IMG/VR virus record: IMGVR_UViG_3300017917_000405
Span: 1 to 64,000 of that record
DNA: 64,000 nt
Origin: a virus
Direction: 5' to 3' (one strand)
In this document: positions 19,327 to 64,000 of the stretch, in pieces
Numbering within the stretch: the stretch's first letter is position 1
How the letters are laid out: every line of letters begins with the position of its first letter
Position numbers and translations under genes: made by a program
The notes under the pieces: model-generated
What the model was told of the DNA's origin: nothing
Database searches by the model: none
The model's input: only the letters and a program-made list of their open reading frames with translations

Positions 19327-19344
19327 AATACAAATTATATCAAC

Positions 19345-20562
19345 TTACAGATCATCGTATACTTCAGAAAACTTTCCCTTATCAAAGTCTGCAATAATTG
19401 AAAAATCTCCAAGGAATCCATTACGATTCTTTCTAAAAGCAATCTCAATTAGGTCGCTATTTGTTTTTCTTCCTAGTGCAAGCACAAAGTCTGCATCATA
19501 TGCAATCTGTCGTGACCATGCTACCTGTCCAAGTTGTGGAACAGACTCTAAATCTGTTGCATCGTCTGGCGTAGCAGAAGCAATAGCGATTACTGGAATC
19601 TGTTCTGAAATTGCAAGCAACTTTAGTTCTCGTGAAAGATTCTTAATCTTAACAGTCTCGTTATCGCTATGACCATTGTCAACCATCAATTGCAGATAAT
19701 CAATAAATACGATATCTGGTTTGTACTGATCAATCTTTGCACGAATAACATTTGGCGTTACCTCATTCATTCCGTCATTTGAAATGATTTTAAATGGCTG
19801 CTTGCCAACTAGATTCTTTTCTGCCCATGGAGCAAACTGCTCATCTGAGATCTTTCCAGATGAGATTGCTCTATGCGAGAACGTTCCATCTCCAAGAATT
19901 GTATAAATGCGGTTACGAACCTCGTGCTCAGTCATTTCTAGGCTTAGAATCATTGGAACCTTTCCGTCCTTCCAGGCCTGAATAGCAAAGAATAGGCTCA
20001 TCCACGACTTACCAATTGCAGGATATGCAAGAAGAATTCCAAGTTGACCAGGAGAAATTCCCATTGGAAGACAAGCATCAAAAGAAACCAGGCCAGTCTT
20101 AATTCCACGAACACCCTGTTCGTTATCCTTACGAACCTTATCAAAGTGTGCGATGGCATCATCAACATCTGTTACATCAATGTCTCTGACACGGGACGTT
20201 ACACGACTAAGCGTAGACACCTCACGATTAATAAAGTCTAGTGCTTTTGCAGTCTCGTTTGACTGAACCAGATCTGCTGATTTTCTCAGGGTGTTTCTTA
20301 GAGACTCGTCCATAAATGTTTCTTTTAGACGGTTGACTTGGTAGATTGTTGGACCGTGGTCAATTGGGTCAAAGTCTCTGAACCTTGTTGCTAGTAGATC
20401 TGAGTCTGGAACCTGCTTTGTTTCTGAATAGTAGTCCTTGATAAACTCCCAGATATCTGCACAGTCTTTCATCATGAAGTCCATGTTGTTCTCAAAAAGA
20501 ACATGAATATCTTTATTATCTGCTACCGCTGAGATGACGGCAACTTCCTCACGCATTCCCAT
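19345..20562 (-). CDS. dnaB: DnaB-like replicative helicase
   Basis: AYPAIGKS, SLEM, FIDYLQL, IAYDAD and KNRNG. Confidence 0.93.
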   Translation of the reverse strand: MGMREEVAVISAVADNKDIHVLFENNMDFMMKDCADIWEFIKDYYSETKQVPDSDLLATRFRDFDPIDHGPTIYQVNRLKETFMDESLRNTLRKSADLVQSNETAKALDFINREVSTLSRVTSRVRDIDVTDVDDAIAHFDKVRKDNEQGVRGIKTGLVSFDACLPMGISPGQLGILLAYPAIGKSWMSLFFAIQAWKDGKVPMILSLEMTEHEVRNRIYTILGDGTFSHRAISSGKISDEQFAPWAEKNLVGKQPFKIISNDGMNEVTPNVIRAKIDQYKPDIVFIDYLQLMVDNGHSDNETVKIKNLSRELKLLAISEQIPVIAIASATPDDATDLESVPQLGQVAWSRQIAYDADFVLALGRKTNSDLIEIAFRKNRNGFLGDFSIIADFDKGKFSEVYDDL

Positions 20563-24002: not shown

Positions 24003-24162
24003 TCTTTTCCTCCTTTAGCCTCGCAATTTCTGCATCCTTCTCGGCGAGGGCTTCTGTGATTTGTGCCTTAAGAACTGCCATCTGTGCCTCATAATTTGAG
24101 GTAATCTGACCAATACGGCTCTGAAGTTCTTGGGCTACTAGTTCCATTGTCTTGTCGCTCAT
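23986..24162 (-). CDS. Small coiled-coil protein (58 aa)
   Basis: Manual translation MSDKTMELVAQELQSRIGQITSNYEAQMAVLKAQIT...; TAATG coupling. Confidence 0.75.
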   Translation of the reverse strand: MSDKTMELVAQELQSRIGQITSNYEAQMAVLKAQITEALAEKDAEIARLKEEKNGESS

Positions 24163-27100
24163 TATGCTCCTATCTTAGACTCCAATTGTATCAGACGGTT
24201 TTTAAGATCGTCAATTTCTTTTTGTTGATCTTGAATAAGCGCAATAGCACATGGAATAAACTCTATTTCATTCCAACCTTCTGGATTTCCATCTTCATCT
24301 AAATATGCCAATGCTGGAATTTTTTCATATACATCTTCTGCAATAAATCCATAAACTTTATTTCCAGGGTTTCTAATATATTCGAATCTTGTAGGAATTA
24401 TATTTAAAAGATTTCTATATTCTTTATCTATATTAGAAATTTTTTCTTTTGGAATTTTTTCAGAAAAAACATTATAGTTATTGGTTGGACTAACATTTGT
24501 TTTAACTCGTATTGTTGAGTCTGCTGTTCCAAGAACGTTAGTATCTTGAATTCTAACAACTCTCGTATTTGTTCCAGTTCCAATGGAGTTTCCCCAAACA
24601 TTTGCTGTGTAAATTCTTGCCGTTCCGCCTGGATTTAATGTAATTGTTCCAGAACTTGTTGTTGTAATTGAAAGGTTTCCATTATTTGTTACTGTATTAA
24701 CATCTATCGTTCCAACGTTATTTATATTTGTAAAGTATCCGTCTGTAGCAGTAACAGATGAGGCATTAACACTACCTGTAAGTGAAATTCTTCCAGCATA
24801 TATGATTGATTGGCTTTCATATGAACTATAGTACCAACCTCCAACATCGGTTAATCCTGAGTATAAAGACATTCCTCCATTTTTTCCAGACGGGCTTAAT
24901 TGAAAGTCTGCTATTCTTCCGGCAGAAGCCGTAATTGTTCCACTAATATTTGCTCCGTCTGCTGTTAAATATCCATTTACATCTACTGAAAAATGTCCAG
25001 CAATAATTCTTCCATCAGAATATAAAGATGTTTTTGAGTTATATAGCCTATCTGTTGCAAGTGACCATCCACCAATTGTTCCAGACGATGCGGTTACTGC
25101 TCCATTAATGGTTAAGGCTGATCCATTCCAAACAAGTTTATCTCCAAGAGAAAAACTAGTTTGTCCTCCTACTAGTCCAACAAAAAATGGCGTGTTTGAA
25201 ACTCCGTGTTGTCCAACACCAGAATACATTGCGCTTGCTGTTACTGTAAGATCAGATACTTTAAATGTTGTTCCGTCGTAGTGGAGACCACTACCAATTG
25301 AAAACTTATTTTCGTTATCTATATAAAAAGCAGTTGAAGCAGATTTCCATGCTGGAATTGTTCCAGATGCTGCAATGTACATTTTTGCAGTAGTAGCACT
25401 CTGTAGAAATGTAATTGCCTTACTAGATGTTCCATTAAACTGAGATCTAATATATGCACCATCAAGACTCGTTCCAACTTCCCACCCTGCCGTGAGAGAT
25501 CCTATACGACCAGAGGTAAAGTTAAACACACCGCCGCTAGAAAGTGACATTGTTTGTGTGCCAGAAGTATTATATCCAGAAATGCCAGTCTTATTAAAGA
25601 CCAATCTTTCTCCAGAAGAAACTGAAGATCCAGCATATAGAGACCCATCTGTTAAGTGTACGTTTCCAGAAAACTCTCCACTTTCTGCATTTATATCACC
25701 CTGAACATATAGCGATGATGAAAAAGAATCCCAAACAAGTTTATCTTTTAATGAAAATTTACCATCTGAATCTAGATAAAATCCAGTATTTGAATTCATA
25801 AACGTGCCAGTTCCAGAATAAATTTTTCCTATTGGCGTTCCAAATTCTGGAGTATCTGACTTAATAGTAATCTGACTTGCTAAATCTGTACCAACATAAA
25901 TAGCCTGATTTGCAGCGAGTGTTCCTGTACGAATTCTGTCTGCTGTAATATCGCCAATGTATGCATTATCAATATATGTGATCAAAGACGCTTGTGATGT
26001 TGCAGAGGCATCTGATGCGTTGCCTGCTCCGTCAACTACCTTCGTGTAAAAGTATTTAGATCCCACCGTTGATGAGTTAAAGTTATATGTAATTGTTCCA
26101 GTAGAACCATACCCAGTATTGTTTGTTGTAGATGGGCTAGTTGCTGGAATTGTTCCAATATATGTTCCACCACTATTTGTATTCGTGCTAGACACATAAA
26201 CATCGAACCTAGCAATATCGTCTTCTAGAAAATCTGTATTATTTGCTTTTTTATTGCTATGCTTTATAACAATATTTTGATTGCCAGTCTGTGATGTATT
26301 TTGTACAAGAACCTGAATTGCTGCTGGAGTGCTTGGCTTGTCAATATCTTGTGGAGTAGCAAATGATACTACTGATGTATAAGAACTTAAGTTAAACACA
26401 CTATCATATGCTGCTACCTTTATATAGTAAGTCGTAAATGGCAGCAGGTTATATATAGTATAAGATCTTCCTGGGGTTGAATAATAGGTCCAAGTAGATT
26501 GATCTGTACTTACCGCTAATTTGTATCCAAAAGGACTACCAGTTGCCGAAACATTCCAGGTTATTTCAGCGGTTTTATCAGTACTAGTTGTTGCAGTCAG
26601 ACCAGTAGGAACAGACGGTGCTGTTGTGTCAACGTCTTCCACCGCATTTACTGTAATAAGGTTTGATTGCTTAATAGATGATTCGTTTTCAGATTCGTCA
26701 AATGCTGATACTCCAATATAGTAGTTACCCTCATCTCCAAGAGCAACAACTCCAGTATAAGACCTATCAGTTGCTCCTAGACCAGCGAACTCTTGGGTCC
26801 ATGAACTTTCTGATTCTTTCCTTGAATATACAATAAATCCATCTATAATATTCGGAGTAGTCTGAACATATGTCCATGAAACTAAAAATGAATTTACTGC
26901 TCCAGATGCAACAACAATATCTGGCGGCCTAAGTTCTAATTCATCAATGTATGAGTACCTACGGTATGTGGAAGGTATCGTAGACGACCCAGTTGCACTT
27001 ACTGATAGAACACGAATATAAATAACATTTAAAGATACGCCAAATGTTGCAAGAAGCATCTCGTTACTAAAATAGGTAGATGTTTCTGTTGCATCAATTG

Positions 27101-27389
27101 ATGTTTTATTGATAAAGTCTGATGTATCTGCTATTTCTACAACGTATCTTACAGCCTCTGGCTTTTGTAGATTTGTTGCTGGTGGATTCCAGCGAATAAT
27201 AATTCCAGAACTATTTGATGCAGTTACAACAGAAATAGTATCTTGATCTACTTGTTCTGGGGCTGGAGTATCATTTACAGTAAACTCATATACTACAGAG
27301 TTGCCACTTTCTGTTCCGTTTGCATCTACTGATCTATAGCGTAGTTTATATGTTTTTCCTGGAATAAGATTAGGTACAATTTTATCCAT
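24162..27389 (-). CDS. Tail fibre/spike with FN3 domains and C-terminal S74 intramolecular chaperone
   Basis: FN3 repeats (DTTAPSVPTGL...YYIKVAAYD); STIRVKTN...YGFIAEDV...coiled coil. Confidence 0.85.
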   Translation of the reverse strand: MDKIVPNLIPGKTYKLRYRSVDANGTESGNSVVYEFTVNDTPAPEQVDQDTISVVTASNSSGIIIRWNPPATNLQKPEAVRYVVEIADTSDFINKTSIDATETSTYFSNEMLLATFGVSLNVIYIRVLSVSATGSSTIPSTYRRYSYIDELELRPPDIVVASGAVNSFLVSWTYVQTTPNIIDGFIVYSRKESESSWTQEFAGLGATDRSYTGVVALGDEGNYYIGVSAFDESENESSIKQSNLITVNAVEDVDTTAPSVPTGLTATTSTDKTAEITWNVSATGSPFGYKLAVSTDQSTWTYYSTPGRSYTIYNLLPFTTYYIKVAAYDSVFNLSSYTSVVSFATPQDIDKPSTPAAIQVLVQNTSQTGNQNIVIKHSNKKANNTDFLEDDIARFDVYVSSTNTNSGGTYIGTIPATSPSTTNNTGYGSTGTITYNFNSSTVGSKYFYTKVVDGAGNASDASATSQASLITYIDNAYIGDITADRIRTGTLAANQAIYVGTDLASQITIKSDTPEFGTPIGKIYSGTGTFMNSNTGFYLDSDGKFSLKDKLVWDSFSSSLYVQGDINAESGEFSGNVHLTDGSLYAGSSVSSGERLVFNKTGISGYNTSGTQTMSLSSGGVFNFTSGRIGSLTAGWEVGTSLDGAYIRSQFNGTSSKAITFLQSATTAKMYIAASGTIPAWKSASTAFYIDNENKFSIGSGLHYDGTTFKVSDLTVTASAMYSGVGQHGVSNTPFFVGLVGGQTSFSLGDKLVWNGSALTINGAVTASSGTIGGWSLATDRLYNSKTSLYSDGRIIAGHFSVDVNGYLTADGANISGTITASAGRIADFQLSPSGKNGGMSLYSGLTDVGGWYYSSYESQSIIYAGRISLTGSVNASSVTATDGYFTNINNVGTIDVNTVTNNGNLSITTTSSGTITLNPGGTARIYTANVWGNSIGTGTNTRVVRIQDTNVLGTADSTIRVKTNVSPTNNYNVFSEKIPKEKISNIDKEYRNLLNIIPTRFEYIRNPGNKVYGFIAEDVYEKIPALAYLDEDGNPEGWNEIEFIPCAIALIQDQQKEIDDLKNRLIQLESKIGA

Positions 27390-51963: not shown

Positions 51964-53889
51964 TTAGACAGAGACTATATCACAAGATCCAGCAACACAT
52001 GCAAGATCCTGAGTTCCAGTAGTTGTATCTGATTGCTCATAGTATGAAAGCCATACCCAATCAATTGTTTCTGGAGTTCTTGTTATCAATTCGTTATATT
52101 CTGACTCTGTAATTTCTTGGTATGGTGCTTGCTGATATGTGTGATCTGAGTGTGGAAGAAATGAAATTCCAGAGATTTCGTCCATGTGCTTAAACACCCA
52201 TGCACCAACATCCATCCATTCATCTTCACGAACAGATACTGTAATTGAAGGCTTATGTTCTGCCCAATGTCTTTGATACATCAGCCAGAGTTCTAGATGC
52301 TTAATTGCGGTAAGGTCTGATCTTGTAAGCGCATTAGATGGAGCCTTGATTGGAAACGTAAATACTGTTGTGTCCATTGGCTTCATTACATCTGGTTCTG
52401 CAATTACTCCCATGTCTTTGAGCATTGTTGTAATTGGGTCTTTATTGTCTGCTCTAACTGTGCGAGCATAGAATTCGCTATGCCATGGGTGCATACCGCT
52501 TGCGCCATTAACAAGTTGTGAGACAGTACCGGAAGGCTTTACACAGGTAATGGCAGTAGCCTGGTTAATACCAATTTTTGAAGCCCACGCCTTATTAATT
52601 TCAACTGATTTCTCGCGCATTGCTGTCAGCCATTCGATTAGTTTTTCTTCACCCTCAGATCCATTAAGAACTGGGTGGCTAAGTTGATTTGTTAGAGATA
52701 CACCAAGCAATCTTTCTTCTTCTGAGTTCTTTTGCCAAATTTTTCTAAGGTACTTAAAACGAGTAAACGTTGACTGTACAGTTCCAAGAATTGTTGCTGT
52801 CTCTACCTTTTCTAGTAGTTCTTCTAAAGTATCTGTTTCACGAACTACAACCTCTGTAAGATTACAGAATTGGTATGGTCGCAAAATAATTTCACTACAT
52901 GGGTTAGTTCCAAATTCATGCTCTGGATCTCTTCTACCATTTTTCTTTGCAACATTCTTGGCAGCATCTCTAGAAAAAATACCGCGTTCGCCAGACTTTG
53001 AATCGTACAAAGCCTTCCACTCTGCCATAAAAACTTCCATTGTTGGAGTTTGTTCGTATACTGCTGAGTTGTTTGCTAGAGCACGCTGACCGTTATATTC
53101 CCACCAAGAACCAGACTTTGCGGCTGCCATATTTCGATCCTCTAGGTCGGACAGAGAAATCATTGCTGAGCGACGTACACCGCCCACAACAACAACTTCT
53201 GCAACCTTACACATAATGTCATGTGCTTCAAGTGGGGTGATCTTACGTCCTGCAGCGTTTCTAATAAGTTCTACTGAAAACTTAAACAGTCTATCCAATG
53301 GTTCTGGGCCAGACGCCCTTCCACCAAATGTCTTAAGTCTTTCTCCTGCAGGTCGAACCTTGCTCATGTCCCATGTTGGAATTTGACCTTGCCATAGCAA
53401 CGCCAAAAGTTCCTTAAATGCTCGTGCCCAGCCAGCCTTTGAGTCCTCTACAATAATTACGGTAGAAGTCTCCTCAAAGTGCTCGTCTACTCGTGGCAAC
53501 TGATTTACATAACGTGATTCTACTGAATATCCAACACCTGTTCCACACATAAGAATATACATTGCTTCATCAAATGATCTTAGTGAATCAACTGGTAGGT
53601 ATGAGCAATTAAAAATACAAGTGTTATCTCTTTCAAGTGCTGGCCCAGCGGTCATCAAAGCACGCATTGAAGGCATTACCTTTGTAGCAATAATATCTTC
53701 ACGAATCTTTTCAATGACCTTCTTGTTCATCTCAAAATTGCTGTGTTCTTTAAGAGCATTAAAGATGTAATCAACGTACCTATCCACAGTTTCATCCCAG
53801 TTTTCTCGGCGGTTTTCTTCTTCTATCCACCTTGCGTAACGGGTCTTGTGAATTACCTGCTGATAAGCAGAAGGTAGTTGATATGTCAT
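51964..53889 (-). CDS. nrdJ: Class II (B12-dependent) ribonucleotide reductase
   Basis: PSMR, FNCSY, GTNPCSEI, CVKPSGT, HKPSIT and C-terminal CVAGSC; no small-subunit gene nearby. Confidence 0.92.
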   Translation of the reverse strand: MTYQLPSAYQQVIHKTRYARWIEEENRRENWDETVDRYVDYIFNALKEHSNFEMNKKVIEKIREDIIATKVMPSMRALMTAGPALERDNTCIFNCSYLPVDSLRSFDEAMYILMCGTGVGYSVESRYVNQLPRVDEHFEETSTVIIVEDSKAGWARAFKELLALLWQGQIPTWDMSKVRPAGERLKTFGGRASGPEPLDRLFKFSVELIRNAAGRKITPLEAHDIMCKVAEVVVVGGVRRSAMISLSDLEDRNMAAAKSGSWWEYNGQRALANNSAVYEQTPTMEVFMAEWKALYDSKSGERGIFSRDAAKNVAKKNGRRDPEHEFGTNPCSEIILRPYQFCNLTEVVVRETDTLEELLEKVETATILGTVQSTFTRFKYLRKIWQKNSEEERLLGVSLTNQLSHPVLNGSEGEEKLIEWLTAMREKSVEINKAWASKIGINQATAITCVKPSGTVSQLVNGASGMHPWHSEFYARTVRADNKDPITTMLKDMGVIAEPDVMKPMDTTVFTFPIKAPSNALTRSDLTAIKHLELWLMYQRHWAEHKPSITVSVREDEWMDVGAWVFKHMDEISGISFLPHSDHTYQQAPYQEITESEYNELITRTPETIDWVWLSYYEQSDTTTGTQDLACVAGSCDIVSV

Positions 53890-54003
53890 ATAAATCTCTC
53901 CATAAATTTTATTTTTTATATCTGCCATCAGCAGCGTATTTCTCTATTCTACGGCATGATCTATTTAGGAACAAGTTAGTCAGAGAGTGATAAACTTAAC
54001 AAC

Positions 54004-54316: not shown

Positions 54317-55294
54317 CTAATTTGTTATCTGATCGTAACGTTCAAGAAATTCTTTTTTCACTAGACTGAAGTGATCTCCAACTTTCTTTTTCCAATTCCA
54401 TTGATTATGAACTTCTGATGCTCTATCATAATAAACATCACACACATCTTGAGGACTATTATCAACAAAATTTTTCATTTTATTAACAACATCTTCATAG
54501 TCTGGCCTATACATCTTTCCAGGATGAATGTCTTGCCACAGAGAATAGTCTAAGTAACTATTGATTCTATGCTCTGGTAGTAAAAAGTTTGAATAATCCA
54601 TCCACTTAGTGGTTGATATAACAGGCATCCCAGTAGCAAGAGCCTGTAGTGGAAGCAGACCAAACCCCTCGCCCCATGTTGGATAAATAAAACAATGAGC
54701 ATTAGACATTAGTTTAGACATTTCTGGATACATTAAATTTTCTGTAACAACTTTTACGTTTGGCTCGTTGTATGGAATAGCAGATCCACCATATGCCTTA
54801 ATAATAAGTTCTACGTTTTTATTTCCAGCAAAGTTTTCCATAAATGCATTAAACGTGTCGTATAGATTTTTGCGATATGCAGGTGCTCCAAAATGAATAA
54901 ATGTTATTTTGTCATCTACAGTTCTCTTTGCTGGTTGCCATACATCGTCTATTCCATGACCAAATACCTTAATTGGACCACTAAAATATTCTGTAAATAC
55001 ATCTTTACAAAATTGATTTGGAACCCATAGTTCATCTATTTGTTCTAAATACTCATCCCACTTTGGCTTTAGCGACGTTGACTCCCAAGCGGTATATCCA
55101 ATCTTGTAAGAGCGTTCTCCATAAAATTTATAAAACTGTGGATGAGCAAACGTTATTTCAATATCTGCTTTTCTATCTCTTACAACGGTATAGTCAAGTT
55201 TTGGTAGGGTGCTTAGAATTTTAAATGTTGCGTGTCCGTACCCAGTCATAACTGCTGAATCACAGTTATTCATGCTTATTTTCATGTTGTCCAA
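54317..55294 (-). CDS. GT-B (GT4-like) glycosyltransferase
   Basis: TGYG, WES, RKN and EGFGLLPLQALATGMPVI. Confidence 0.9.
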   Translation of the reverse strand: MDNMKISMNNCDSAVMTGYGHATFKILSTLPKLDYTVVRDRKADIEITFAHPQFYKFYGERSYKIGYTAWESTSLKPKWDEYLEQIDELWVPNQFCKDVFTEYFSGPIKVFGHGIDDVWQPAKRTVDDKITFIHFGAPAYRKNLYDTFNAFMENFAGNKNVELIIKAYGGSAIPYNEPNVKVVTENLMYPEMSKLMSNAHCFIYPTWGEGFGLLPLQALATGMPVISTTKWMDYSNFLLPEHRINSYLDYSLWQDIHPGKMYRPDYEDVVNKMKNFVDNSPQDVCDVYYDRASEVHNQWNWKKKVGDHFSLVKKEFLERYDQITN

Positions 55295-55618: not shown

Positions 55619-55647
55619 TTGACTTCTGCGAATATCCATGATAAGGT
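55619..55647 (+). promoter_or_regulatory. Housekeeping-sigma promoter for the Rpf-like gene
   Basis: TTGACT-17 nt-TAAGGT with TG extension. Confidence 0.7.
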
Positions 55648-55675
55648 AGATAAGTTGCCGCCGCAAGGAGGAAAC

Positions 55676-56272
55676 ATGACGAAAACGAAACTGGTAGGAG
55701 GAATTATGGCAATGGGATTTGTTGCAGGTGCTGTAATGGGAGTTGCTGCTCCCAATTCCTCTCAACAGGCTTATGCTAAGTCTGTACCAACTGCGACGGA
55801 TGGGCTAACAGAGCCTACCGCCACAAATGTAGGACTTGTTCCTGCACAACAGGAGGCTACTGTAAAACGCCTACCAACTCTGCTGAGAGTTAATTCAGCA
55901 GATGACGAAAGAGGATTTGAAAAGAGTGCATATAAGGGGAAGTATTTTCACCGCGCCGATGAAACTCTACGTCGTTGCATTATCACAAGAGAGAGCCATG
56001 CGACCTATATGTTAAATGGCGGAGGGGCTTATCAATTCATGAGTTATGATAGATGGCCTATCTCACTTTCTTGGATGTTAAAGAAAGAAATACGCAAGCA
56101 CTATGGAAAACGGCTTGCAAATAAGATGCAGAAAATACTTTCTCATCATGAAGTAAACGAATGGTCCCGTTATTGGCAGGACGCAGCATTCTATACGGTT
56201 CTTAATTACAAGGGCCGTCATTCTGGAATCAAGCATTGGACTGCGACTGTTCCAGGGACAGACTGCTTTTAA
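55676..56272 (+). CDS. Secreted Rpf-like/lysozyme-fold transglycosylase
   Basis: Signal-like N-terminus; CIITRES...GAYQF...W...QD...HW; AAGGAGG RBS. Confidence 0.75.
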   Translation: MTKTKLVGGIMAMGFVAGAVMGVAAPNSSQQAYAKSVPTATDGLTEPTATNVGLVPAQQEATVKRLPTLLRVNSADDERGFEKSAYKGKYFHRADETLRRCIITRESHATYMLNGGGAYQFMSYDRWPISLSWMLKKEIRKHYGKRLANKMQKILSHHEVNEWSRYWQDAAFYTVLNYKGRHSGIKHWTATVPGTDCF

Positions 56273-56281
56273 GTAGTACAA

Positions 56282-56332
56282 TGGTGGGGGTGGTATACCC
56301 AATTTATTAGGTGGCAACAACTACCCCCACCA
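56282..56332 (+). terminator. Long GC hairpin after the Rpf-like gene
   Basis: TGGTGGGGGTGGT...ACTACCCCCACCA. Confidence 0.6.
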
Positions 56333-56351
56333 CACTTATACTAGGAGAATT

Positions 56352-57035
56352 GTGAAAAAGGTTTTAGACCATGGATATGTTCGTCTTGTAAATAACATGG
56401 GCAGCGACTTGGACGTAGTAAATGCTGCTAGGGTTTCGTTTGATAAAGAAGTCGCAAAATTAGAAAACAAAGATGAAAGGCTCATTGAGTTTCTTGTACA
56501 ACACAAGCATGATTCATGTCTACGACATTGTGTAATGACTTTTGAAGTATATGCACCACTTATGGTCGCTAGACAATGGTATAAGCACGTTGTGGCTGCA
56601 AGCGCCCTTGACGACCAACTAGGATGGAATGAATCTTCTCGTAGATATATTACTGAAAATGAAGAATTCTATGTGCCAGAAGCCTGGAGAAGCGTCCCCG
56701 AAAATAGAAAACAAGGCTCTGGAGATAACCTAGACTTAAAGACCTCACAAGTACTTTCTGGAGCGTTAGCGCAGCATATAGATACCGCATACACACTTTA
56801 CAAAAACGCGCTAGAAGTTGGTGTCGCACCAGAACAAGCGCGATTGTTTTTGCCAGCATATGCGATGTATGTGCGCTGGCGTTGGACTGCATCCTTAAAT
56901 GCTGTATTGCACTTTATTGCGTTACGCAACGCGACGGAGGCACAGGCAGAGATCCAAGAATACTCCAAAGCCATAGAAACCATTACATACGACTATTATC
57001 CAATTACAAGCAAGTATTGGAATAAATACCGATGA
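56352..57035 (+). CDS. thyX: Flavin-dependent thymidylate synthase
   Basis: VNAARVSF, VARQWYKH...WNESSRRY, EQARLFLP and AQAEIQEY. Confidence 0.93.
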   Translation: MKKVLDHGYVRLVNNMGSDLDVVNAARVSFDKEVAKLENKDERLIEFLVQHKHDSCLRHCVMTFEVYAPLMVARQWYKHVVAASALDDQLGWNESSRRYITENEEFYVPEAWRSVPENRKQGSGDNLDLKTSQVLSGALAQHIDTAYTLYKNALEVGVAPEQARLFLPAYAMYVRWRWTASLNAVLHFIALRNATEAQAEIQEYSKAIETITYDYYPITSKYWNKYR

Positions 57036-57643
57036 GATATGAACACATTGCTGATCCACCGCTACTCATCGTGCATGACACCTTCACAGATGAAGAACTA
57101 CGTCGCGTGTGGAAAGAACTAGACTTTCTTACAGAAGAAGACTATATGCTTCCACCAGAAAGAACTGGAACTGCTACAAATGAGGACGGAAGCCCCAGGA
57201 AAAATAACGCAGCAAGGTTTATAGACCCATTCTATGCAGAAGGACTATATTCTCCAGTATGTTTATATACTGAAAAACTTATTGGATCTGATGTTCTAGA
57301 GCAATTAGAAAAGGTAAGCCCAACAAACAAGTTTTTCTCAAAAATTAATCATAGGTCAGTACTGATAAGTTACTATCAGAATTCTGGATACTACCATCCA
57401 CATGAAGATTCATGTTTTTATACAATAACTACTTATCTATTCAAAGAGCCTAAAAGGTTTACTGGAGGAGATATTTCCATAGAATTTCGGGGCGCGAAAA
57501 TAGAGATCCACATACACAACAATATGTCTATAATATTCCCATCCTTCTATCTACACGAAGTGTCTGAAATTAGGATGGAAGACAGACCATTCTCAGGTAA
57601 TGGTAGATATTGTATTTCTCAATTTTTAGGAAGTAAGTCATGA
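57032..57643 (+). CDS. 2OG-Fe(II) oxygenase (prolyl-4-hydroxylase-like)
   Basis: YHPHED, FTGG, IFPS..LHEV and RYCI. Confidence 0.88.
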   Translation: MRYEHIADPPLLIVHDTFTDEELRRVWKELDFLTEEDYMLPPERTGTATNEDGSPRKNNAARFIDPFYAEGLYSPVCLYTEKLIGSDVLEQLEKVSPTNKFFSKINHRSVLISYYQNSGYYHPHEDSCFYTITTYLFKEPKRFTGGDISIEFRGAKIEIHIHNNMSIIFPSFYLHEVSEIRMEDRPFSGNGRYCISQFLGSKS

Positions 57644-57825
57644 CCGAAGATACCGATCTTATTCTTTATATTATGCTAGGACGCATATATGATGTATTGA
57701 TGATTATTGCTGATGAAATGGGAAGAGGTCAAGATGTACTTGAATTGCGTCAATTGCATGAGTCAGGAGAACTTATCTGTCCCCCGCCGTCTTTAAAACC
57801 TAGTCCTGATCCAAATGCCAATTAA
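57640..57825 (+). CDS. Hypothetical protein
   Basis: YIMLGRIYD...LH..G...PPP; ATGA coupling. Confidence 0.7.
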   Translation: MTEDTDLILYIMLGRIYDVLMIIADEMGRGQDVLELRQLHESGELICPPPSLKPSPDPNAN

Positions 57826-58102
57826 TATGATCGTCTACTTTATTACGAATATCTTTAATATCTGATGATGCTTCTGCTATATCCTTAGCAAATTGTGATT
57901 GATTGTATTCAAGACGATTAATAGCATCTCTCATTGACCCACCGCCATTTGGATGTAGTTCTTTTTTGATATCGCAAAGTTCTTCTTTTACGTCTTTGAG
58001 TAACCATTTAGAAATAATAGTAACTACAGCAACAATTGCTATAACTGCACCCGCCATCTGGCCTAAAAATATAATTAAATCGTCAACTTGCGGAGTGTCC
58101 AT
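57800..58102 (-). CDS. Membrane protein with PNGGGSMRD motif (lysis-region type)
   Basis: One TM helix then ELHPNGGGSMRDAINRLE coiled coil; start reassigned to MDTPQ. Confidence 0.7.
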   Translation of the reverse strand: MDTPQVDDLIIFLGQMAGAVIAIVAVVTIISKWLLKDVKEELCDIKKELHPNGGGSMRDAINRLEYNQSQFAKDIAEASSDIKDIRNKVDDHINWHLDQD

Positions 58103-58187
58103 ACATTCATAGTTCCTATTTAGTTTTTTACAGGCCAGCCTGTAAATTAATTTTATCACGAAAAGATTACGATGATATACTTTGCAT

Positions 58188-58340
58188 ATGGAAACAACAG
58201 TAACTTGTAAACTATGTGGAACAGAACTTAACATTACACTAGGTACATCAGAATCAATGAATATAGATGGAACAATGATTACAACAATTATTAGTGCAAT
58301 GGGTTCAGCAATTCACGATTGCCCCGCGCTTTCTGCGTAA
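58188..58340 (+). CDS. Small zinc-binding protein (50 aa)
   Basis: Manual translation METTVTCKLCG...IHDCP; TGATATACT-6 nt-ATG. Confidence 0.6.
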   Translation: METTVTCKLCGTELNITLGTSESMNIDGTMITTIISAMGSAIHDCPALSA

Positions 58341-58346
58341 CATTTT

Positions 58347-58396
58347 GTTATAAAATTTCGTTATAAATTTGTTATATATTGTTATCATTTTGTTAT
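58347..58396 (+). repeat. Five roughly helically phased GTTAT repeats
   Basis: GTTAT at 58347, 58360, 58371, 58381 and 58392. Confidence 0.75.
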
Positions 58397-58619
58397 AGTT
58401 CAAATTGAGAAAAATGTTAATAATATTTTATTTTGTATGATGTTGATATTTGTGTCCAAAATGTCCGTTTTGAGTAGTGCGCCCATAAATGTTCCTTACG
58501 ACCCCTATGTCCGTTTTGTGAGTTTTGTCATGGCGAATGGAATGCAGGCCCGTAGAATGGCGAAAGGACGGGAGGGTAGTTTCCTACCCCGCCGCCCTCT
58601 CGTGCCGCCTAGCGTCCCG

Positions 58620-59045
58620 CTAGATATCCTCGCCGCAGGTGTGGCAGTAGATCGCTGCCACTTGCTGGTCCCCGTTGTGATCTTCCTCCATGATCGCGCT
58701 GGTGAAATGATCTAGGTGTAGTGCCTTCCGTAGCCCGCGTGCCCATTCTGCGAACTCCATACCCTTGCGCTGCGCGTCGTGGGTCCATGCACCGTGGCAG
58801 GTGGCGCATAGCACCTGGCACTTAGACAGTTCCGCAAGCAGAGTGCGCGTGGAGTATCGGCGCACCATGTTCGCAGGGTGAACTACCTCGCCAGAGGCGT
58901 TGCGGTATTTGTTCGATGGATCTAGGTGGTCGAGCACTAGGCCCGCCGCGCTCGTGCGATATCCGCAGACTGTGCAACCGTGGGACAGTTTGTGCGCGTC
59001 AACTATGGCGCGATTGCGCTCCTGTGCCTGTCGTGAGATAGCCAT
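58620..59045 (-). CDS. HNH-like endonuclease
   Basis: CTVCG...LDHLDP...KCQVLCATCH; start reassigned to MAISRQ. Confidence 0.75.
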   Translation of the reverse strand: MAISRQAQERNRAIVDAHKLSHGCTVCGYRTSAAGLVLDHLDPSNKYRNASGEVVHPANMVRRYSTRTLLAELSKCQVLCATCHGAWTHDAQRKGMEFAEWARGLRKALHLDHFTSAIMEEDHNGDQQVAAIYCHTCGEDI

Positions 59046-59197
59046 CACGCACACTCCTCGCACCCGTAGGCCTGCAGGCAGTATTGGCACGCGCTGGCCT
59101 CGCAAGCCTCGCATGAGGCAAGCGGCGTCACGTTGTCGCACATATCGCAGGCGAACAGGTCGAAGTCCGAAAGGGAAAGGTGTTCTAGTTCTTGCAT
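59045..59197 (-). CDS. Four-CxxC microprotein (50 aa)
   Basis: Manual translation MQELEHLSLSDFDLFACDMCDNVTPLASCEACEASACQYCLQAYGCEECA; GGAGG RBS. Confidence 0.65.
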   Translation of the reverse strand: MQELEHLSLSDFDLFACDMCDNVTPLASCEACEASACQYCLQAYGCEECA

Positions 59198-59349
59198 GAC
59201 TGCCTCCAAGCGTTGTGAGGGGCAACGTCACAGACTGCACAACGCCGTCCCTCCTCCATAAAAATGATGTTGTGACTAGCGGCGTTAGCCTCTCGCACAC
59301 TCGGCTCCATCGCGTTGACCGCGTGGCCTAGTTCGACCATCGTGTCCAT
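59185..59349 (-). CDS. Small hypothetical protein
   Basis: MDTMVEL...H...CAVC...C; GAAAGG/AAGGA RBS. Confidence 0.6.
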   Translation of the reverse strand: MDTMVELGHAVNAMEPSVREANAASHNIIFMEEGRRCAVCDVAPHNAWRQSCKN

Positions 59350-59456
59350 TGTCCTTGCCTTTCGTGAGGTGTTTGTTCCCATGCCTTGATCCAAGCACCT
59401 TTCGATCATGTTGTCACGCCCAAACGGGAGCTTTTTTATCTTTTTTTTCAGAATGT

Positions 59457-59500
59457 TTATCCACAACCTTATCCACAGATTGTGCATAACCTGTGGAAAA
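59457..59500. promoter_or_regulatory. Cluster of four DnaA boxes
   Basis: TTATCCACA at 59457 and 59469; reverse-orientation TTATGCACA (59481-59489) and TTTTCCACA (59492-59500). Confidence 0.8.
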
Positions 59501-59516
59501 CCTGCAGTATCCCAAA

Positions 59517-59612
59517 TGTCCGATTTGTCCATTGTGTCCGATTTGTCTCAAATGTCCGTTTTGCCCTAGTTTGTCCTAGAATGTCCGAATTGCCCTAGAT
59601 TGTCCGATTTTG
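59517..59612 (+). repeat. Periodic TGTCCG(W)(W)TTG / TGYCY array
   Basis: TGTCCG at 59517, 59535, 59553, 59582 and 59601; TGYCY ten times at 9-10 bp spacing. Confidence 0.85.
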
Positions 59613-59787
59613 TTGTTTTTGTAACCTATTTACGAAAAGCCCGAAATATCACGAAAGTTCCTGGTGCTTTTGATCTAATTACGATAGGGGAAAATATCAC
59701 GGAAAGTTTATCGTTTTGTTATCAAATAGGCTTGACTTTCATGGTTATGTATGGTTAGATATTAGTAATACAAAGAAAGGTAAGGAA

Positions 59788-59889
59788 ATGCCAAAGGAAT
59801 TCAAGATCGCCATCGTTCCCGCCGTTGCATTGTTCGCGCTTTGCACCTACATCTGTATGTCAGCCCTGCGTGCTATCTTTGCTTTCTAG
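59788..59889 (+). CDS. Membrane microprotein (33 aa)
   Basis: MPKEFKIAIVPAVALFALCTYICMSALRAIFAF; GAAAGG/AAGGA RBS. Confidence 0.55.
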   Translation: MPKEFKIAIVPAVALFALCTYICMSALRAIFAF

Positions 59890-59898
59890 GAGGAAATC

Positions 59899-60030
59899 AT
59901 GATGCACATCTACTACTTAGGCCGCTACAAGAACAGCGAGCAAGACTACGACCGCGCTAGTGCGTGGGTAGCCAATGAGGTTGCGTCTAGTGGCGCGTCC
60001 TTTGCAGACTTTGAGATTGTGGAGGCATAA
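59899..60030 (+). CDS. Microprotein (43 aa)
   Basis: AGGAGG RBS; MMHIYYLGRY... Confidence 0.6.
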   Translation: MMHIYYLGRYKNSEQDYDRASAWVANEVASSGASFADFEIVEA

Positions 60031-60125
60031 TGAAACTCACTCATCGTGGCGAGGTTGCGATTGTCCTTGCTTTCATCGCTGGTTTTGCCTTTCTCTGTCA
60101 TGTCTTTGGCGAGGGGGGATTCTAA
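60030..60125 (+). CDS. Membrane microprotein (31 aa)
   Basis: MKLTHRGEVAIVLAFIAGFAFLCHVFGEGGF; GGAGG RBS and TAATG coupling. Confidence 0.6.
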   Translation: MKLTHRGEVAIVLAFIAGFAFLCHVFGEGGF

Positions 60126-60368
60126 ATGATGTACCATATCGTTCACCCATTAGCACATGGCGTTAGTGTCATCACTAAGAAAGAAGTGCCCATTGCTATG
60201 GCTACCGCAGATACTTGCGAGATTGCATTCTTTGACCAAGATGGTGAATGGGTTACTGATATCGTTTCAGAGTTTGTAGAGTATGCAGATAGCGTAGAAG
60301 GTGGCACGCTTGTCTATGGCTATGTGCCAAATGAAGATGTCGAAAACTTTTTAGAAAAATATTCGTAA
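60126..60368 (+). CDS. Acidic hypothetical protein
   Basis: CEIAFF...GEWV...VYGYVP. Confidence 0.65.
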   Translation: MMYHIVHPLAHGVSVITKKEVPIAMATADTCEIAFFDQDGEWVTDIVSEFVEYADSVEGGTLVYGYVPNEDVENFLEKYS

Positions 60369-60524
60369 TAGACTTGACAAACCCATTGATTTGGGTCCGG
60401 CCCCGAAATGTCCTATTTACGAAGTATGTACTTTTTCACAGAAAATATAACAGGTTTATAACAATATTGTTTATCATTTCGTTATAAATCAATGTCCGTT
60501 TTGTCATATCTACTCGTCAGTAAA

Positions 60525-60546
60525 TGTCAGACCCCTCTGATAGTTT
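60525..60546 (+). promoter_or_regulatory. TGTCAG-N10-TAnnnT promoter copy 1
   Basis: TGTCAG ACCCCTCTGA TAGTTT. Confidence 0.7.
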
Positions 60547-60634
60547 GTTTCTAGTAGAAAGGATTCACTTATGTTCATGTACATCATCTCCCTTGATTGT
60601 TCCCCCTGGAATGTCCCCGTCGTCTGCGATGAAA

Positions 60635-60656
60635 TGTCAGACCCCTCGGATAGACT
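60635..60656 (+). promoter_or_regulatory. TGTCAG-N10-TAnnnT promoter copy 2
   Basis: TGTCAG ACCCCTCGGA TAGACT. Confidence 0.7.
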
Positions 60657-60710
60657 TCACCCATCAATGATGAATCACATTGTCGATATCGAAACGATTG
60701 GATTGGTAGC

Positions 60711-60881
60711 ATGAGTACCCCCACCCTTCACCTTGCTGTCTGCCCGCGCTGTGCAGAAAACTTCCTCTCAACCTTTGAGGCAATCGACGATTGGGAAGAT
60801 GTTTGCGAGAAGTGCTACGAGGACTTCCTGCTTGACCTCTACCCCGACCTTGACTGGCAAGCCGAATACCACCACCTTTAG
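60711..60881 (+). CDS. Zinc-finger microprotein (56 aa)
   Basis: Manual translation with CPRC...CEKC and an acidic tail. Confidence 0.6.
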   Translation: MSTPTLHLAVCPRCAENFLSTFEAIDDWEDVCEKCYEDFLLDLYPDLDWQAEYHHL

Positions 60882-60888
60882 GAGAAAC

Positions 60889-61089
60889 ATGACTTACACA
60901 TTCACTACCCCATTCCTCCGCATTGATTGGCAGGAGGGTTCTCATACTGCTAACGTCACCACCGTTCGTGGAGATATGGACGTTTTCACGTTCGCATGGC
61001 ACAAAGACTATCCCGATGTTGTGGACTTCACCGAAGCCCTTGCATCATGGGTCAACTACTCGCTCACCGTGGAGGACGCTAATGTCTAA
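60889..61089 (+). CDS. Hypothetical protein
   Basis: AGGAGA RBS; MTYTFTTPFLRIDWQEG... Confidence 0.65.
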   Translation: MTYTFTTPFLRIDWQEGSHTANVTTVRGDMDVFTFAWHKDYPDVVDFTEALASWVNYSLTVEDANV

Positions 61090-61213
61090 CTATCTTGACT
61101 ACCTTCCCGAAGATGGCAACTTCACCGAAGATGAACTTTGGGACGCGATTGCAGAATCATTAGACGTTGATCCAGATGAGATCAGCGATGGAGATTTGGT
61201 GGACTACCTGTGA
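61082..61213 (+). CDS. Very acidic microprotein
   Basis: GGAGG RBS; MSNYLDYLPEDGNFTEDELWDAIAESLDVDPDEISDGDLVDYL. Confidence 0.65.
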   Translation: MSNYLDYLPEDGNFTEDELWDAIAESLDVDPDEISDGDLVDYL

Positions 61214-61419
61214 GCGATTACTTTATCTATCACCCAGGATCAGGAACAATGATCGCATTGTCAGATACTGTCTATGTCATTGACGCAACCTCTTTGACTG
61301 AACTAGAACTAGATGAATCAGAGGCAGGAGTGTTAGATATCTATCGCGTGATGGATATTGGTGTTCGCCTTGATAATGAATATTGGGACGAAGTACAAGA
61401 TGCAATGGAGGCAATGTAA
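61210..61419 (+). CDS. Acidic hypothetical protein
   Basis: GTGA coupling to the upstream gene. Confidence 0.6.
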   Translation: MSDYFIYHPGSGTMIALSDTVYVIDATSLTELELDESEAGVLDIYRVMDIGVRLDNEYWDEVQDAMEAM

Positions 61420-61565
61420 TGAAAACTAATAGAGAACTCAATCCAACAGAGTTTGAGATTGCATTCCAACTAAAGAATGCGTTAAACGAGTTGAGAAACT
61501 ATCAAGATATTCCCGCTGCTATTGAGCATATCGAATCAGCACTTACAAATCTGTATGAGTGGTGA
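61419..61565 (+). CDS. Small helical protein
   Basis: GGAGG RBS and TAATG coupling; MKTNRELNP... Confidence 0.6.
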   Translation: MKTNRELNPTEFEIAFQLKNALNELRNYQDIPAAIEHIESALTNLYEW

Positions 61566-61751
61566 CTTGACAAACTGAGATCTCGGGGCCGGACGGAACA
61601 AATCGGACATTTACGACAACCTAAAAAAGTCACGGAAATGTAACAATTTTTATTTTTATCGGCGTGTCAACTTGACAGACATATCGGACATATCTCCGTT
61701 ATCAAACCGTAATAAAACCTGTCCGTTTTGTATGTTTTTAGAATTAGGTAA

Positions 61752-61773
61752 TGTCAGACCCCTAGTGTAGAGT
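61752..61773 (+). promoter_or_regulatory. TGTCAG-N10-TAnnnT promoter copy 3
   Basis: TGTCAG ACCCCTAGTG TAGAGT. Confidence 0.7.
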
Positions 61774-61800
61774 GAGGGTACTAGTTAGAAAGGCTACAAA

Positions 61801-62070
61801 ATGATTCACGGTATTTACACTCCAATTTCAATGACTGCCGCCGATATTATTGGCGAGGAAACTATCATGGGAAGTGGCGGTGCGCCTGTCGTTATCCGTC
61901 GCGTGTCTAATGATTCTAAGACTGTCACTTTCATGGACGTGTACCGTGGAAAATTGTTCCGATTCCGCAAAGATCAAGCGGTCACAGTCCTTATCCGAGA
62001 GGACGAAAATGACCCTATCGTGCAAGCGGAATTGGCTTGTGCATTAGCAGATAAGGGGGTACAATTCTAA
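61801..62070 (+). CDS. Hypothetical protein (SH3-like beta barrel)
   Basis: GAAAGG RBS downstream of promoter copy 3. Confidence 0.65.
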   Translation: MIHGIYTPISMTAADIIGEETIMGSGGAPVVIRRVSNDSKTVTFMDVYRGKLFRFRKDQAVTVLIREDENDPIVQAELACALADKGVQF

Positions 62071-62071
62071 T

Positions 62072-62209
62072 ATGATAAAGAATCGTAAGCGTACCCGTGA
62101 GGAAATTACCCGCGTGCAGGAATTGCGTCGTAGTAATGCTGCCATGCCTCACAAGAACAAGTCACGTTACACCCGCAAGGTGAAGCATAAGGGGCAAGCG
62201 TATGCTTGA
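62072..62209 (+). CDS. Basic microprotein (45 aa)
   Basis: MIKNRKRTREEITRVQELRRSNAAMPHKNKSRYTRKVKHKGQAYA. Confidence 0.65.
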   Translation: MIKNRKRTREEITRVQELRRSNAAMPHKNKSRYTRKVKHKGQAYA

Positions 62210-62278
62210 GTTTATTCTAATCCTCGCCTGCTCTATTATCGGTGCTATCATTCTCGCCCTAGAACTCTAAGGAATAAA

Positions 62279-62383
62279 ATGAAAATTGATCTAGACTATG
62301 ACGCGCAATGCTATTGCGTAGATTGCTGCCCCGAAGGGTGTTGCCCTTGTGAGGACTGTAATGAGCCTTGCGACTGTCCATAA
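62279..62383 (+). CDS. Cys-rich metallothionein-like microprotein (34 aa)
   Basis: MKIDLDYDAQCYCVDCCPEGCCPCEDCNEPCDCP; TAAGGA RBS. Confidence 0.55.
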   Translation: MKIDLDYDAQCYCVDCCPEGCCPCEDCNEPCDCP

Positions 62384-62460
62384 CCTAATTCCATTCTATT
62401 GCGAACCCTGCCAGGAAATAGAGTTTTTCTGTGATACCTGCGGGGAAAACCTAATCGACT

Positions 62461-62482
62461 TGTCAGACCCCCATGCTAAGGT
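62461..62482 (+). promoter_or_regulatory. TGTCAG-N10-TAnnnT promoter copy 4 (leaderless)
   Basis: TGTCAG ACCCCCATGC TAAGGT, then 6 nt and the ATG at 62489. Confidence 0.72.
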
Positions 62483-62488
62483 GAACCC

Positions 62489-63040
62489 ATGATTAAAGAA
62501 ATTATCGCTGCCAATACTGTCACCCTCTACACGGAACGCTTTCGCTTCCTCGCCCTTCAAGCCACTATGTCACAGATTGAGTCTGCTGCAACGTGGTACT
62601 ATGACGCGCAGGAGGTTGCGGAGGACGTTGCGGAAAACTTAGGCGTATCGCTTGAGATCGGTGCTTCCATCGTTGCCGCATTCTCACCTCGTGAGCGTTG
62701 GGCAAGCAATGTTGCTAAGGCTCTCGCATTCTCATTAGGCAAGCCCGTTGCAGGATTGCAGAATAACTACCGTATGGCAGAACGTTCGATGGAATTGGGC
62801 TTTGACGCGCTCAACGGACTAAAGACTAATGCGTTCGCTCGTGCTATTGCAGGCGATAATGACGCGGTAGTTATTGACGTATGGATGTGCCGCGCTGCTG
62901 CTATTGGCACAGATTCACCTAACAAAACACAGTACAACGATCTGTCGCAAGCGGTTCGCAATGTTGCGGAAGAAATGGGAGTAACACCGCGCACCATGCA
63001 AGCACTAATTTGGATTATCATTAGAGGGAGTGCAAACTAA
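62489..63040 (+). CDS. Conserved phage protein, HhH-glycosylase-like
   Basis: WY...AAFSP...W..N, K..AF, VVIDVWMCR and QALIW. Confidence 0.6.
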   Translation: MIKEIIAANTVTLYTERFRFLALQATMSQIESAATWYYDAQEVAEDVAENLGVSLEIGASIVAAFSPRERWASNVAKALAFSLGKPVAGLQNNYRMAERSMELGFDALNGLKTNAFARAIAGDNDAVVIDVWMCRAAAIGTDSPNKTQYNDLSQAVRNVAEEMGVTPRTMQALIWIIIRGSAN

Positions 63041-63180
63041 TGCCTAAAGTAAAATTGCCCAGGGGAGAATGGGAAAGTATTCTCGTCACGTTAGAACTCG
63101 CACAACAACATAATATCGTTGCTTATTTAGATCCACTTATCAAAGAAATAGAAGATCAAGTCTACGCGCAGGAGTACTAA
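63040..63180 (+). CDS. Microprotein (46 aa)
   Basis: TAATG coupling; MPKVKLPRGEW... Confidence 0.6.
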   Translation: MPKVKLPRGEWESILVTLELAQQHNIVAYLDPLIKEIEDQVYAQEY

Positions 63181-63389
63181 AAATGCTAGATGATATCGCC
63201 GTCATGTTCATCACCGTGTTCGGTGTAATTATTTTATTTTTTTGGATTGCATCGCTAATTTTTTAGTGCGTTGCACTTGACAAATGCGATAAGCGGGGCC
63301 GGATCGGTTGTTACCTAACTGTTACGAAACTAACTTGATTTTCACAGAAATTTTTGCTAGGCTTTAGCCATCAACCACTAGGAGGACTC

Positions 63390-63509
63390 ATGGACCCGAT
63401 TTTCGAATTCTCAGACGGCTTTGACGCTGTTGGCTGGTACACGGAGCAGTTGTCCAAGCGCGACCACGACGACTATGGCTGGGACTACATAGAAGAATAC
63501 CCCTACTAG
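63390..63509 (+). CDS. Acidic aromatic microprotein (39 aa)
   Basis: AGGAGG RBS after a TTGATT-17-TAGGCT promoter. Confidence 0.6.
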   Translation: MDPIFEFSDGFDAVGWYTEQLSKRDHDDYGWDYIEEYPY

Positions 63510-63583
63510 AAAGGGGCCGGACTTTTCTAAACCTCTTTTACGATAGTGCTTGACTTTCACAGGAATTATGGTAAGTTTGACTT

Positions 63584-63808
63584 ATGAGCGAATCTACTGA
63601 AACCATCGAAACCGCATATCAACTCAATGCAAATGATAGGTGTGATAAGTGTCAAGCACAAGCATATTTCTGGGTGAATGGAGTAGCAGGGGATCTTCTT
63701 TTCTGCCGCCATCATTTCTTGGAAAATGAAGAAAAAATTCGTGCTTATGCCTTTGAAATTGTAGATGAATCTGATAAGATCAACGAAAGGTCTGAATCAA
63801 GTGCTTAG
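63584..63808 (+). CDS. Small zinc-binding protein of an actinobacterial family
   Basis: LNANDRCDKCQAQAY...LLFCRHH; leaderless start. Confidence 0.7.
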   Translation: MSESTETIETAYQLNANDRCDKCQAQAYFWVNGVAGDLLFCRHHFLENEEKIRAYAFEIVDESDKINERSESSA

Positions 63809-64000
63809 GTCAAAGAAGAACGTTGGCAAGAACCACATGCGCTGCCCCTACGGTTGCTGCACAGGAATGAGCAAGAAGCAGGAAAAGCGTATCATCAAGC
63901 GCAAGGAAACGAGGGAGTGGAAGAATGACAACTGATTCATGTCACCCAATGTCATTGGAAGTAGGAGATCAAGTCCTAATAAATGGAGAGACATTTACTC

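Follow-up and report, generated by a model that had tools for sequence, protein, structure and literature searches.

In a viral genome depleted of type II-like palindromes, most residual CCGG sites form the core of a repeated early-spacer box

Classical cases of restriction-site avoidance in phages are the GATC-free Staphylococcus phage K and the GGCC-poor Bacillus phages. In phage T5, whose DNA enters by first-step transfer, the early region has to escape restriction until anti-restriction functions have been produced. The small early genes of T4-type phages are reportedly accompanied by promoter-early stem-loop (PeSL) cassettes, spacers composed of a hairpin and a promoter, which Arbiol et al. 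are said to have described in 2010. Avoidance of restriction sites is a pattern of non-temperate double-stranded DNA (dsDNA) phages and concerns orthodox type II sites (Rusinov et al. 2018, PMC6286503). Here, we analyze the first 64 kb (positions 1 to 64,000, hereafter the window) of the 94,728-bp virus record IMGVR_UViG_3300017917_000405, a genome of 94,629 bp in which AGCT, CCGG, and several other palindromic words are strongly depleted. Most of its surviving CCGG sites form the core of a 10-bp GC-rich box, GGGGCCGGAC, that recurs in the spacers of an early gene block.

This genome resembles described lytic phages with avoided sites in its complete or near-complete loss of orthodox type II palindromes and in its lineage-specific word set, whereas it differs from the usual pattern in that several words are avoided at once and the remaining copies of one word are restricted to the core of a regulatory box in at least five genomes (PMC6286503). 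A limited literature search retrieved no description of residual sites confined to a repeated regulatory box. The spacers may be akin to the T4-type cassettes: small early genes are parted by a repeated spacer with a hairpin and a promoter, and their content is patchy among relatives; unlike those cassettes, the spacer adds a GC box, TTACGA/TCACRG repeats, and DnaA boxes. The comparison with the first-step-transfer region of T5 rests on the shared idea of early DNA surviving restriction, but here the purge is genome-wide rather than limited to the early block, and we found neither a terminal-repeat location nor an injection-stop signal.

Expected counts were computed with a maximal-order Markov model, separately for the window and for the whole genome. 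Within the window, AGCT occurs once (at 59429) against 189 expected copies, and CCGG occurs six times (at 24919, 52529, 60397, 61589, 63299, and 63517) against 40. Over the whole genome, observed and expected counts are 1 and 271 for AGCT and 9 and 65 for CCGG, and the three CCGG sites past the end of the window start at 65418, 66605, and 69390 of the genome; AGCT and CCGG have the lowest observed-to-expected ratios among 4-mers. An initial annotation of this DNA had reported a single AGCT in the window and CCGG only about twice in coding DNA (24919 and 52529) but four times in a conserved motif; computation bore out the AGCT count, and all of the CCGG coordinates proved correct. Markov-corrected 4-mer counting and site mapping, which it had proposed, gave counts far below expectation and a residual CCGG set that is not randomly placed.

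The purge extends to words that the initial annotation did not mention, namely CASTG, GGATCC, GGTACC, TGGCCA, CTCGAG, and GACATC/GATGTC. Genome-wide, CACTG and CAGTG together (CASTG) are absent against 102 expected, as are GGATCC, GGTACC, TGGCCA, and GGCGCC (15, 8, 7, and 5 expected, respectively). CTCGA and TCGAG each occur once (19 and 14 expected), and GACATC plus GATGTC occur seven times (45 expected), while GATC, GANTC, and GCNGC are at expectation. Almost all purged words are type II-like palindromes, and words one base away from AGCT or CCGG are not so enriched as to hint at one mutational route. A purge limited to symmetric hexamers (RCCGGY and YCCGGR) was ruled out, as the asymmetric classes are depleted as well.

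A second null model, in which synonymous codons were shuffled while the protein sequence and per-gene codon usage were kept (81 long genes, 200 replicates), gave the same picture. AGCT is absent from these genes against 302 +/- 14 expected copies, and CCGG occurs three times against 54 +/- 6.5; one of those three is the box at 65418, which lies within a spurious open reading frame (ORF) extension. CASTG (71 expected), GGATCC (8.7), GGTACC (8.6), TGGCCA (11), and CTCGAG (5) all have a count of zero. Because the synonymous shuffle still expects hundreds of AGCT and dozens of CCGG, codon usage cannot explain the depletion. For a rough contrast of coding with non-coding DNA, we used a crude coding mask (ORFs of at least 45 amino acids, aa) that mislabels early spacers as coding; by this mask, non-coding DNA holds about 6-7 CCGG against 10 expected but only 0-1 AGCT against 19. 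AGCT has therefore been purged everywhere, and CCGG everywhere except in the box.

The likely agent of this purge is host restriction, as the initial annotation had held for palindrome avoidance, and this part of its account is well supported by both null models, by the palindromic nature of the words, and by the mosaic of word sets among relatives described below. A six-frame search of this genome and four relatives for the families PF00145, PF01555, and PF02086 (C5, N4/N6, and Dam-type methylases) gave no hit, and Pfam scans of about 80 ORFs returned an FkbM-type protein (9490-10290, -) as the sole methyltransferase. As no DNA methylase family was found, the depletion points to classical restriction-site avoidance rather than self-methylation.

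All but two of the nine CCGG sites of this genome are cores of the box GGGGCCGGAC, which is forward in five copies and inverted in two. A search for the box with one mismatch allowed returned the four window copies described below, where shuffled sequences give 0.4 expected matches. The box is present in seven of the eight early-block spacers that bear TTACGA/TCACRG sites. The first copy in the window is inverted (60395-60404, -); ORF 60126-60368 stops 27 nucleotides (nt) ahead of it, and a TTACGA at 60417 follows at a distance of 13 nt. The second (61585-61594, +) lies 20 nt past the stop of ORF 61383-61565, and the third, the variant GGGGCCGGAT (63295-63304, +), 115 nt past the stop of ORF 63040-63180. 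The fourth (63513-63522, +) directly follows ORF 63354-63509, and its GGGG closes a CCCCT...AGGGG hairpin. Beyond the window, boxes occupy genome positions 65415-65424 (inverted), 66601-66610, and 69386-69395 (L121:1415-1424, 2601-2610, and 5386-5395). Six of the seven thus fall 4 to 115 nt past a stop codon, and in the remaining case, at 65415, the box and the end of a doubtful ORF (65208-65447) overlap. The two CCGG sites outside boxes lie in the gene for a 1075-aa tail protein (site 24919-24922; gene 24162-27389, -) and in the ribonucleotide reductase gene (site 52529-52532; gene 51964-53928, -).

The box belongs to a larger module. Every forward copy starts 25-28 nt upstream of a TTACGA-N13-TCACRGRAA site (60417-60441, +, with further starts at 61611, 63322, and 63538), and the element TTGACAAA (60374-60381, +; further copies at 61567 and 63277) precedes four boxes by 18-21 nt, start to start. 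At the five of seven boxes where the distance was measured, a promoter-like TGTCAG-N10-TANNNT site follows 60-140 nt downstream; copies lie at 60525-60546 (+), 59858, 60635, 61752, and 62461. The early block holds five such sites in the window, where 0.74 are expected, and ten in the whole genome, all on the plus strand. They have the form of the actinobacterial RecA-NDp/PafBC promoter motif. A motif of that name is mentioned in PMC6789036. For seven of the nine CCGG sites, a TTACGA follows at no more than 35 nt, which holds for 1.3% of genome positions (binomial P = 2.5e-12). The module, (TTGACAAA)-N10-box-N15-18-TTACGA-N13-TCACRGRAA followed by a TTGACA/TGTCAG-N10-TANNNT promoter, is repeated between early transcription units.

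Several readings of the box itself were tried. A hairpin was ruled out by a fold inconsistent over the seven copies; the GGGG of three boxes closes a hairpin in this genome, and most copies form none. A -10 or -35 element paired with TTGACA or TTACGA would fit the regular spacing but was set aside because the flanking elements all keep one orientation and two of the boxes do not. An AdpA-like site (TGGCSNGWWY) is matched well by a single box. Rfam found tRNAs only and no known RNA family in the spacers, and a scan of viral contigs for the box-to-TTACGA pattern returned single chance matches that are uninformative. Our best guess is that, within the spacer module, the box may be bound and read by a protein or may serve as a boundary element together with the terminator-like hairpin ahead of it.

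The TCACRGRAA words of these spacers (window 60417-63562, L121:1439-5610) are often repeated in the same direction at a distance of 10-11 nt, as in ATCACAGAAATCACAGAAA at genome 66645, and the relatives L126, L136, and L138 have direct repeats of the same kind. Judged by sequence, they look like binding sites of OmpR-type response regulators. They resemble the mycobacterial MtrA box GTCACAgcg.

To place these observations in the phage family, we collected 18 loci from IMG/VR through the DUF7178 protein (62489-63040; 44-76% identity) and read three records of about 100 kb (G001, G002, and G003) in full, G002 being the record behind locus L127. CCGG is observed 7 times against 55 expected in G001, 6 against 49 in G002, 12 against 106 in G003, and 6 against 15 in the 18.8-kb locus L130. 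Twenty-nine of these 31 residual sites fall in a short GC-rich box of early spacers. In another tally of the four relatives, module boxes account for 31 of 37 residual copies, 29 assigned by a 60-nt rule over the three whole records and L130 and two in G003 read by eye. In the relatives, a hairpin and a run of T stand ahead of the box, and TGTCAAG/TTACGA repeats or DnaA boxes come after it. When modules were defined by TTACGA/TGTCAAG/TTAAGA anchors only, without reference to CCGG, 20 of 21 modules in L125, L127, L128, and L130 had CCGG within 50 nt upstream, and the exception carries no other module feature. The flanks of the box vary while the tetramer is constant (ggcCCGGccc, gggCCGGgcc, atcCCGGccc, cgaCCGGccc, gggCCGGtcg, and others). 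When eight relatives are taken together, 52 of their 75 residual CCGG have an anchor no more than 60 nt downstream, where 5.9 would be expected; this figure is only indicative, since the anchors were chosen post hoc.

In other relatives, which contain no CCGG at all, the spacers keep their architecture and the box is altered at one or a few positions. The box reads GGGGCCGAC(C) in L132 and L134, GGGGCCGCGCCCC before TTACGA in L129, and GCTCGGGGC in L136; L123 has TCGGGCCGCCCCGA, with one of its seven boxes still CCGGGCCGCCCCG. The boxes of L135 and L126, on the other hand, hold CCGG although these phages show little or no purge of the word. Purge and box therefore vary independently, and this independence favors two separate forces over a causal link such as a self-sparing nuclease or an obligatory methylation sensor. 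By these comparisons, constraint on the CCGG core appears to hold as a family-wide property. The proposal of the initial annotation that the retained CCGG sites are functional is thus supported only in a more limited form: conserved intergenic boxes here and in four relatives share an unvarying CCGG core, but the word is replaceable, because relatives with zero CCGG keep CCGG-free variants in same-build spacers.

The single AGCT behaves differently. This sole copy in the 94.6-kb genome (59429-59432) stands in probably non-coding DNA, some 25 nt upstream of two perfect DnaA boxes, TTATCCACA (59457-59477, +, starting at 59457 and 59469), which we give as context only. Similar DnaA-box clusters occur in most relatives, and those of the complete genome G003 and of L123 and L126 are found without any AGCT. 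The lone AGCT is therefore not conserved, and the idea that it, too, was retained for a function was not borne out; we read it as a tolerated leftover and no signal.

The sets of avoided words differ among the relatives. AGCT is absent from L123, L124, L126, L128, L133, L135, and L140; its observed and expected counts over whole genomes are 0 and 277 in L128/G003, 250 and 378 in G001, and 106 and 327 in G002. Along the 101 kb of G002, AGCT mostly occurs 0-8 times per 5 kb, but 28, 21, and 10 times per 5 kb within 30-45 kb, and this unpurged 15-kb stretch may be a recently acquired segment. CCGG is absent from L129, L131-134, and L136-138, and L135 and L140 show no purge of it. For CASTG, only the genome analyzed here is fully purged (0 of about 102), with L129 nearly so (1 of 20 expected), while GGATCC is missing from all four complete genomes. 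GGCC and GCGC are absent from L133 and L136. These two loci show the most extreme purges of the set: the 14-kb L133 lacks all of 51 AGCT, 12 CCGG, 25 GGCC, and 21 GCGC expected, and L136 spans 14.7 kb. Such a mosaic of avoided words in related phages would be expected if the restriction repertoires of their hosts change. Each relative has only some of the small early genes found between the modules, while the DUF7178 and DUF932 genes are core.

We consider it probable that two forces met in this genome, a purge by host restriction and a separate constraint on the box that retained CCGG, with the lone AGCT as a leftover. A phage without a DNA methylase would escape the type II restriction of its host by having no targets. 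AGCT, CASTG, GGATCC, GGTACC, TGGCCA, and CTCGAG would have been removed completely or almost so, and CCGG would have been removed from genes bar two places. Seven CCGG would survive as the core of the 10-bp box in the repeated early spacer, where purifying selection on the box would outweigh the per-site gain from losing a restriction target. A partial purge would still pay if every site carries an independent risk of being cut, and lineages under heavier CCGG pressure would have rewritten the box to CCGG-free forms.

Several points weigh against this account. In a host that cuts CCGG, the 7-9 residual sites should remain costly, and a purge that stops at the boxes in five diverged genomes could mean that the enzyme does not recognize these sites. 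Reading the box as a promoter element is made awkward by its presence in both orientations; no reader protein was identified, and the early ORFs tested held no DNA-binding domain. Canonical terminators beside the boxes are few in this genome. Finally, G/C runs contain CCGG about as often as GGCC, GCGC, or CGCG.

This last observation also speaks for passive retention, in which the spacers need a GC-rich segment, such as a hairpin foot or clamp, and CCGG is kept by descent and by copying between modules. The position of the relatives' box directly after a hairpin and a run of T, the three hairpin-closing boxes of this genome, and boxes that work without CCGG in other relatives are all consistent with such a history. 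We nevertheless regard it as rather unlikely. CCGG is present in nearly all anchor-defined modules of the four relatives and in all but one of the spacers here despite changing flanks, whereas a random 10-nt G/C run would hold it in about one-third of cases by a rough estimate that was not computed. Moreover, in this genome the whole 10-mer is conserved, although most copies form no hairpin.

It is improbable that the boxes are deliberate sole CCGG targets of a host enzyme or phage factor, serving as methylation sensors or as harmless points for breaks or nicks. The boxes lie only between transcription units, past terminator-like hairpins and ahead of promoters; the combination of purged genes and kept boxes is stable in five diverged genomes; and the phage encodes RecA as well as RuvC-like, PD-(D/E)XK, and HNH nucleases. 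If this were true, the boxes would read out the methylation state of the previous host, or would break the DNA while leaving early genes intact. The relatives with zero CCGG, however, keep such spacers without the word, and the orientation of the box is mixed. The methylation-state sensor put forward in the initial annotation fares no better, with the box 60-140 nt upstream of promoters, no methylase family found in the phages, and CCGG-free boxes in relatives. Its other suggested roles, a decoy on first-entering DNA and a programmed nick site, likewise gained no support.

A phage-encoded nuclease or binding factor specific for CCGG, with the word removed elsewhere against off-target action on the phage's own DNA, would account for both the conserved box and the purge around it without a methylase, and many ORFs lack an assigned function. 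We think this very unlikely, because CCGG is fully purged in relatives with CCGG-free boxes and unpurged in L135, whose boxes contain CCGG. The Pfam families of Cfr10I/Bse634I, HpaII, and MspI had no match in five records, a negative of little weight given that the controls were silent for Cfr10I/Bse634I and below the family cut-off for MspI. Least credible is a by-product of mutation or codon usage without selection, for example through deamination of host-methylated cytosines: CTGG and CCAG are slightly over-represented (1.15-1.18 times expectation), but AGTT and AACT are not in excess, the shuffle that keeps codon usage still expects 302 AGCT and 54 CCGG, and zero counts for five unrelated palindromes together with differing word sets in close relatives defy one bias, which leaves this explanation close to refuted.

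The ends of the virus record overlap by 99 nt, which is typical of a circular assembly; IMG/VR classes the record as having direct terminal repeats. The GC content of the window is 39%. The virus is an uncultured tailed phage from lake water, of a long-tailed type to judge by its long tape-measure gene. Structural genes encode a 2220-aa tape measure, a portal, a capsid protein, a prohead protease, and a terminase. Genes for replication and nucleotide metabolism encode a DnaB helicase, a DnaG primase, RecA, a ribonucleotide reductase, ThyX, a dCMP deaminase, and a DnaE-type polymerase whose nearest matches are in Streptomyces phages (about 55% identity). A crAss-like phage, a first guess from the giant ORFs, was ruled out, the 2220-aa protein being a tape measure and the polymerase DnaE-like. 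All genes are on the minus strand except a plus-strand block of small ORFs at about 55.6-70.3 kb; its part in the window, with small early-type genes, spans 55619-64000 (+), and the block ends at about 70.3 kb of the genome. Because of the TGTCAG-type promoters and the Streptomyces-phage-like polymerase, the host is probably an actinobacterium. A lytic lifestyle is suggested for this dsDNA phage by the lack of an integrase among the ORFs scanned.

Megablast of two stretches of the window against a phage collection gave no match. A search of cellular genomes for the host with the DUF7178 protein and its alignment returned one lake contig only, a 7-kb contig (L157, JBIKTI010000524.1) in a Lake Mendota Phycisphaerales metagenome-assembled genome, with a DUF7178 gene 67% identical. 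It is probably a mis-binned phage contig, and it places the phage family in fresh water.

Outside the box, the genome and its relatives show other features. Two GT4 glycosyltransferases (one matching a 'conflict system' GT4 model), a 2OG-Fe(II) oxygenase, the FkbM-type methyltransferase, and two DUF6065 proteins are encoded at window positions 54317-55294 (-), 57032-57643 (+), and 9490-10290 (-) and at L121:16102-17004 (-), 10517-11284 (-), and 18643-19365 (-); together, they could constitute a modification pathway. Five tRNA genes alternate with small nuclease-like ORFs, near a protein with a HAD_PNKP (polynucleotide kinase-phosphatase) domain (L121:7834-9656 and 11819-12259), a neighborhood that suggests a function in RNA repair or against anticodon nucleases. 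In the spacers of L125, L126, L127, and L130, a second repeated word, the imperfect palindrome AAAACCCTT...AAGGGTTTT, precedes the CCGG box; it is absent here. A further element, CCTGGGCATGA...AAACTGCC, follows the stop codon of the DUF932 gene in most relatives and lies at L121:2537-2590 (genome 66537-66590) in this phage. It takes the form CCTGAGCATG...AAACTGCTC in L127 and L130, both arms of the GGCA/TGCC stem changing together, and a tRNA-like sequence directly follows it in several relatives. This element may be an RNA hairpin.

Avoidance of several restriction sites at once is known; what these results add, modestly but really, is the placement of one word's remaining copies at the invariant core of a conserved spacer box in at least five genomes and the rewriting of that box in CCGG-free relatives. 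Site avoidance is usually given as one genome-wide number, whereas here the sites that resist the purge map onto one conserved regulatory box. Such residual sites flag, at no extra cost, a functional non-coding element in phages not yet cultivable, in this case an abundant family of lake phages. The relatives form a natural series of element rewriting under rising restriction pressure, from CCGG in the box through one-base variants to none. The avoided words, AGCT, CCGG, CASTG, GGATCC, and others, are a fingerprint of the hosts' restriction repertoire and could aid the pairing of phages with hosts in metagenomes.

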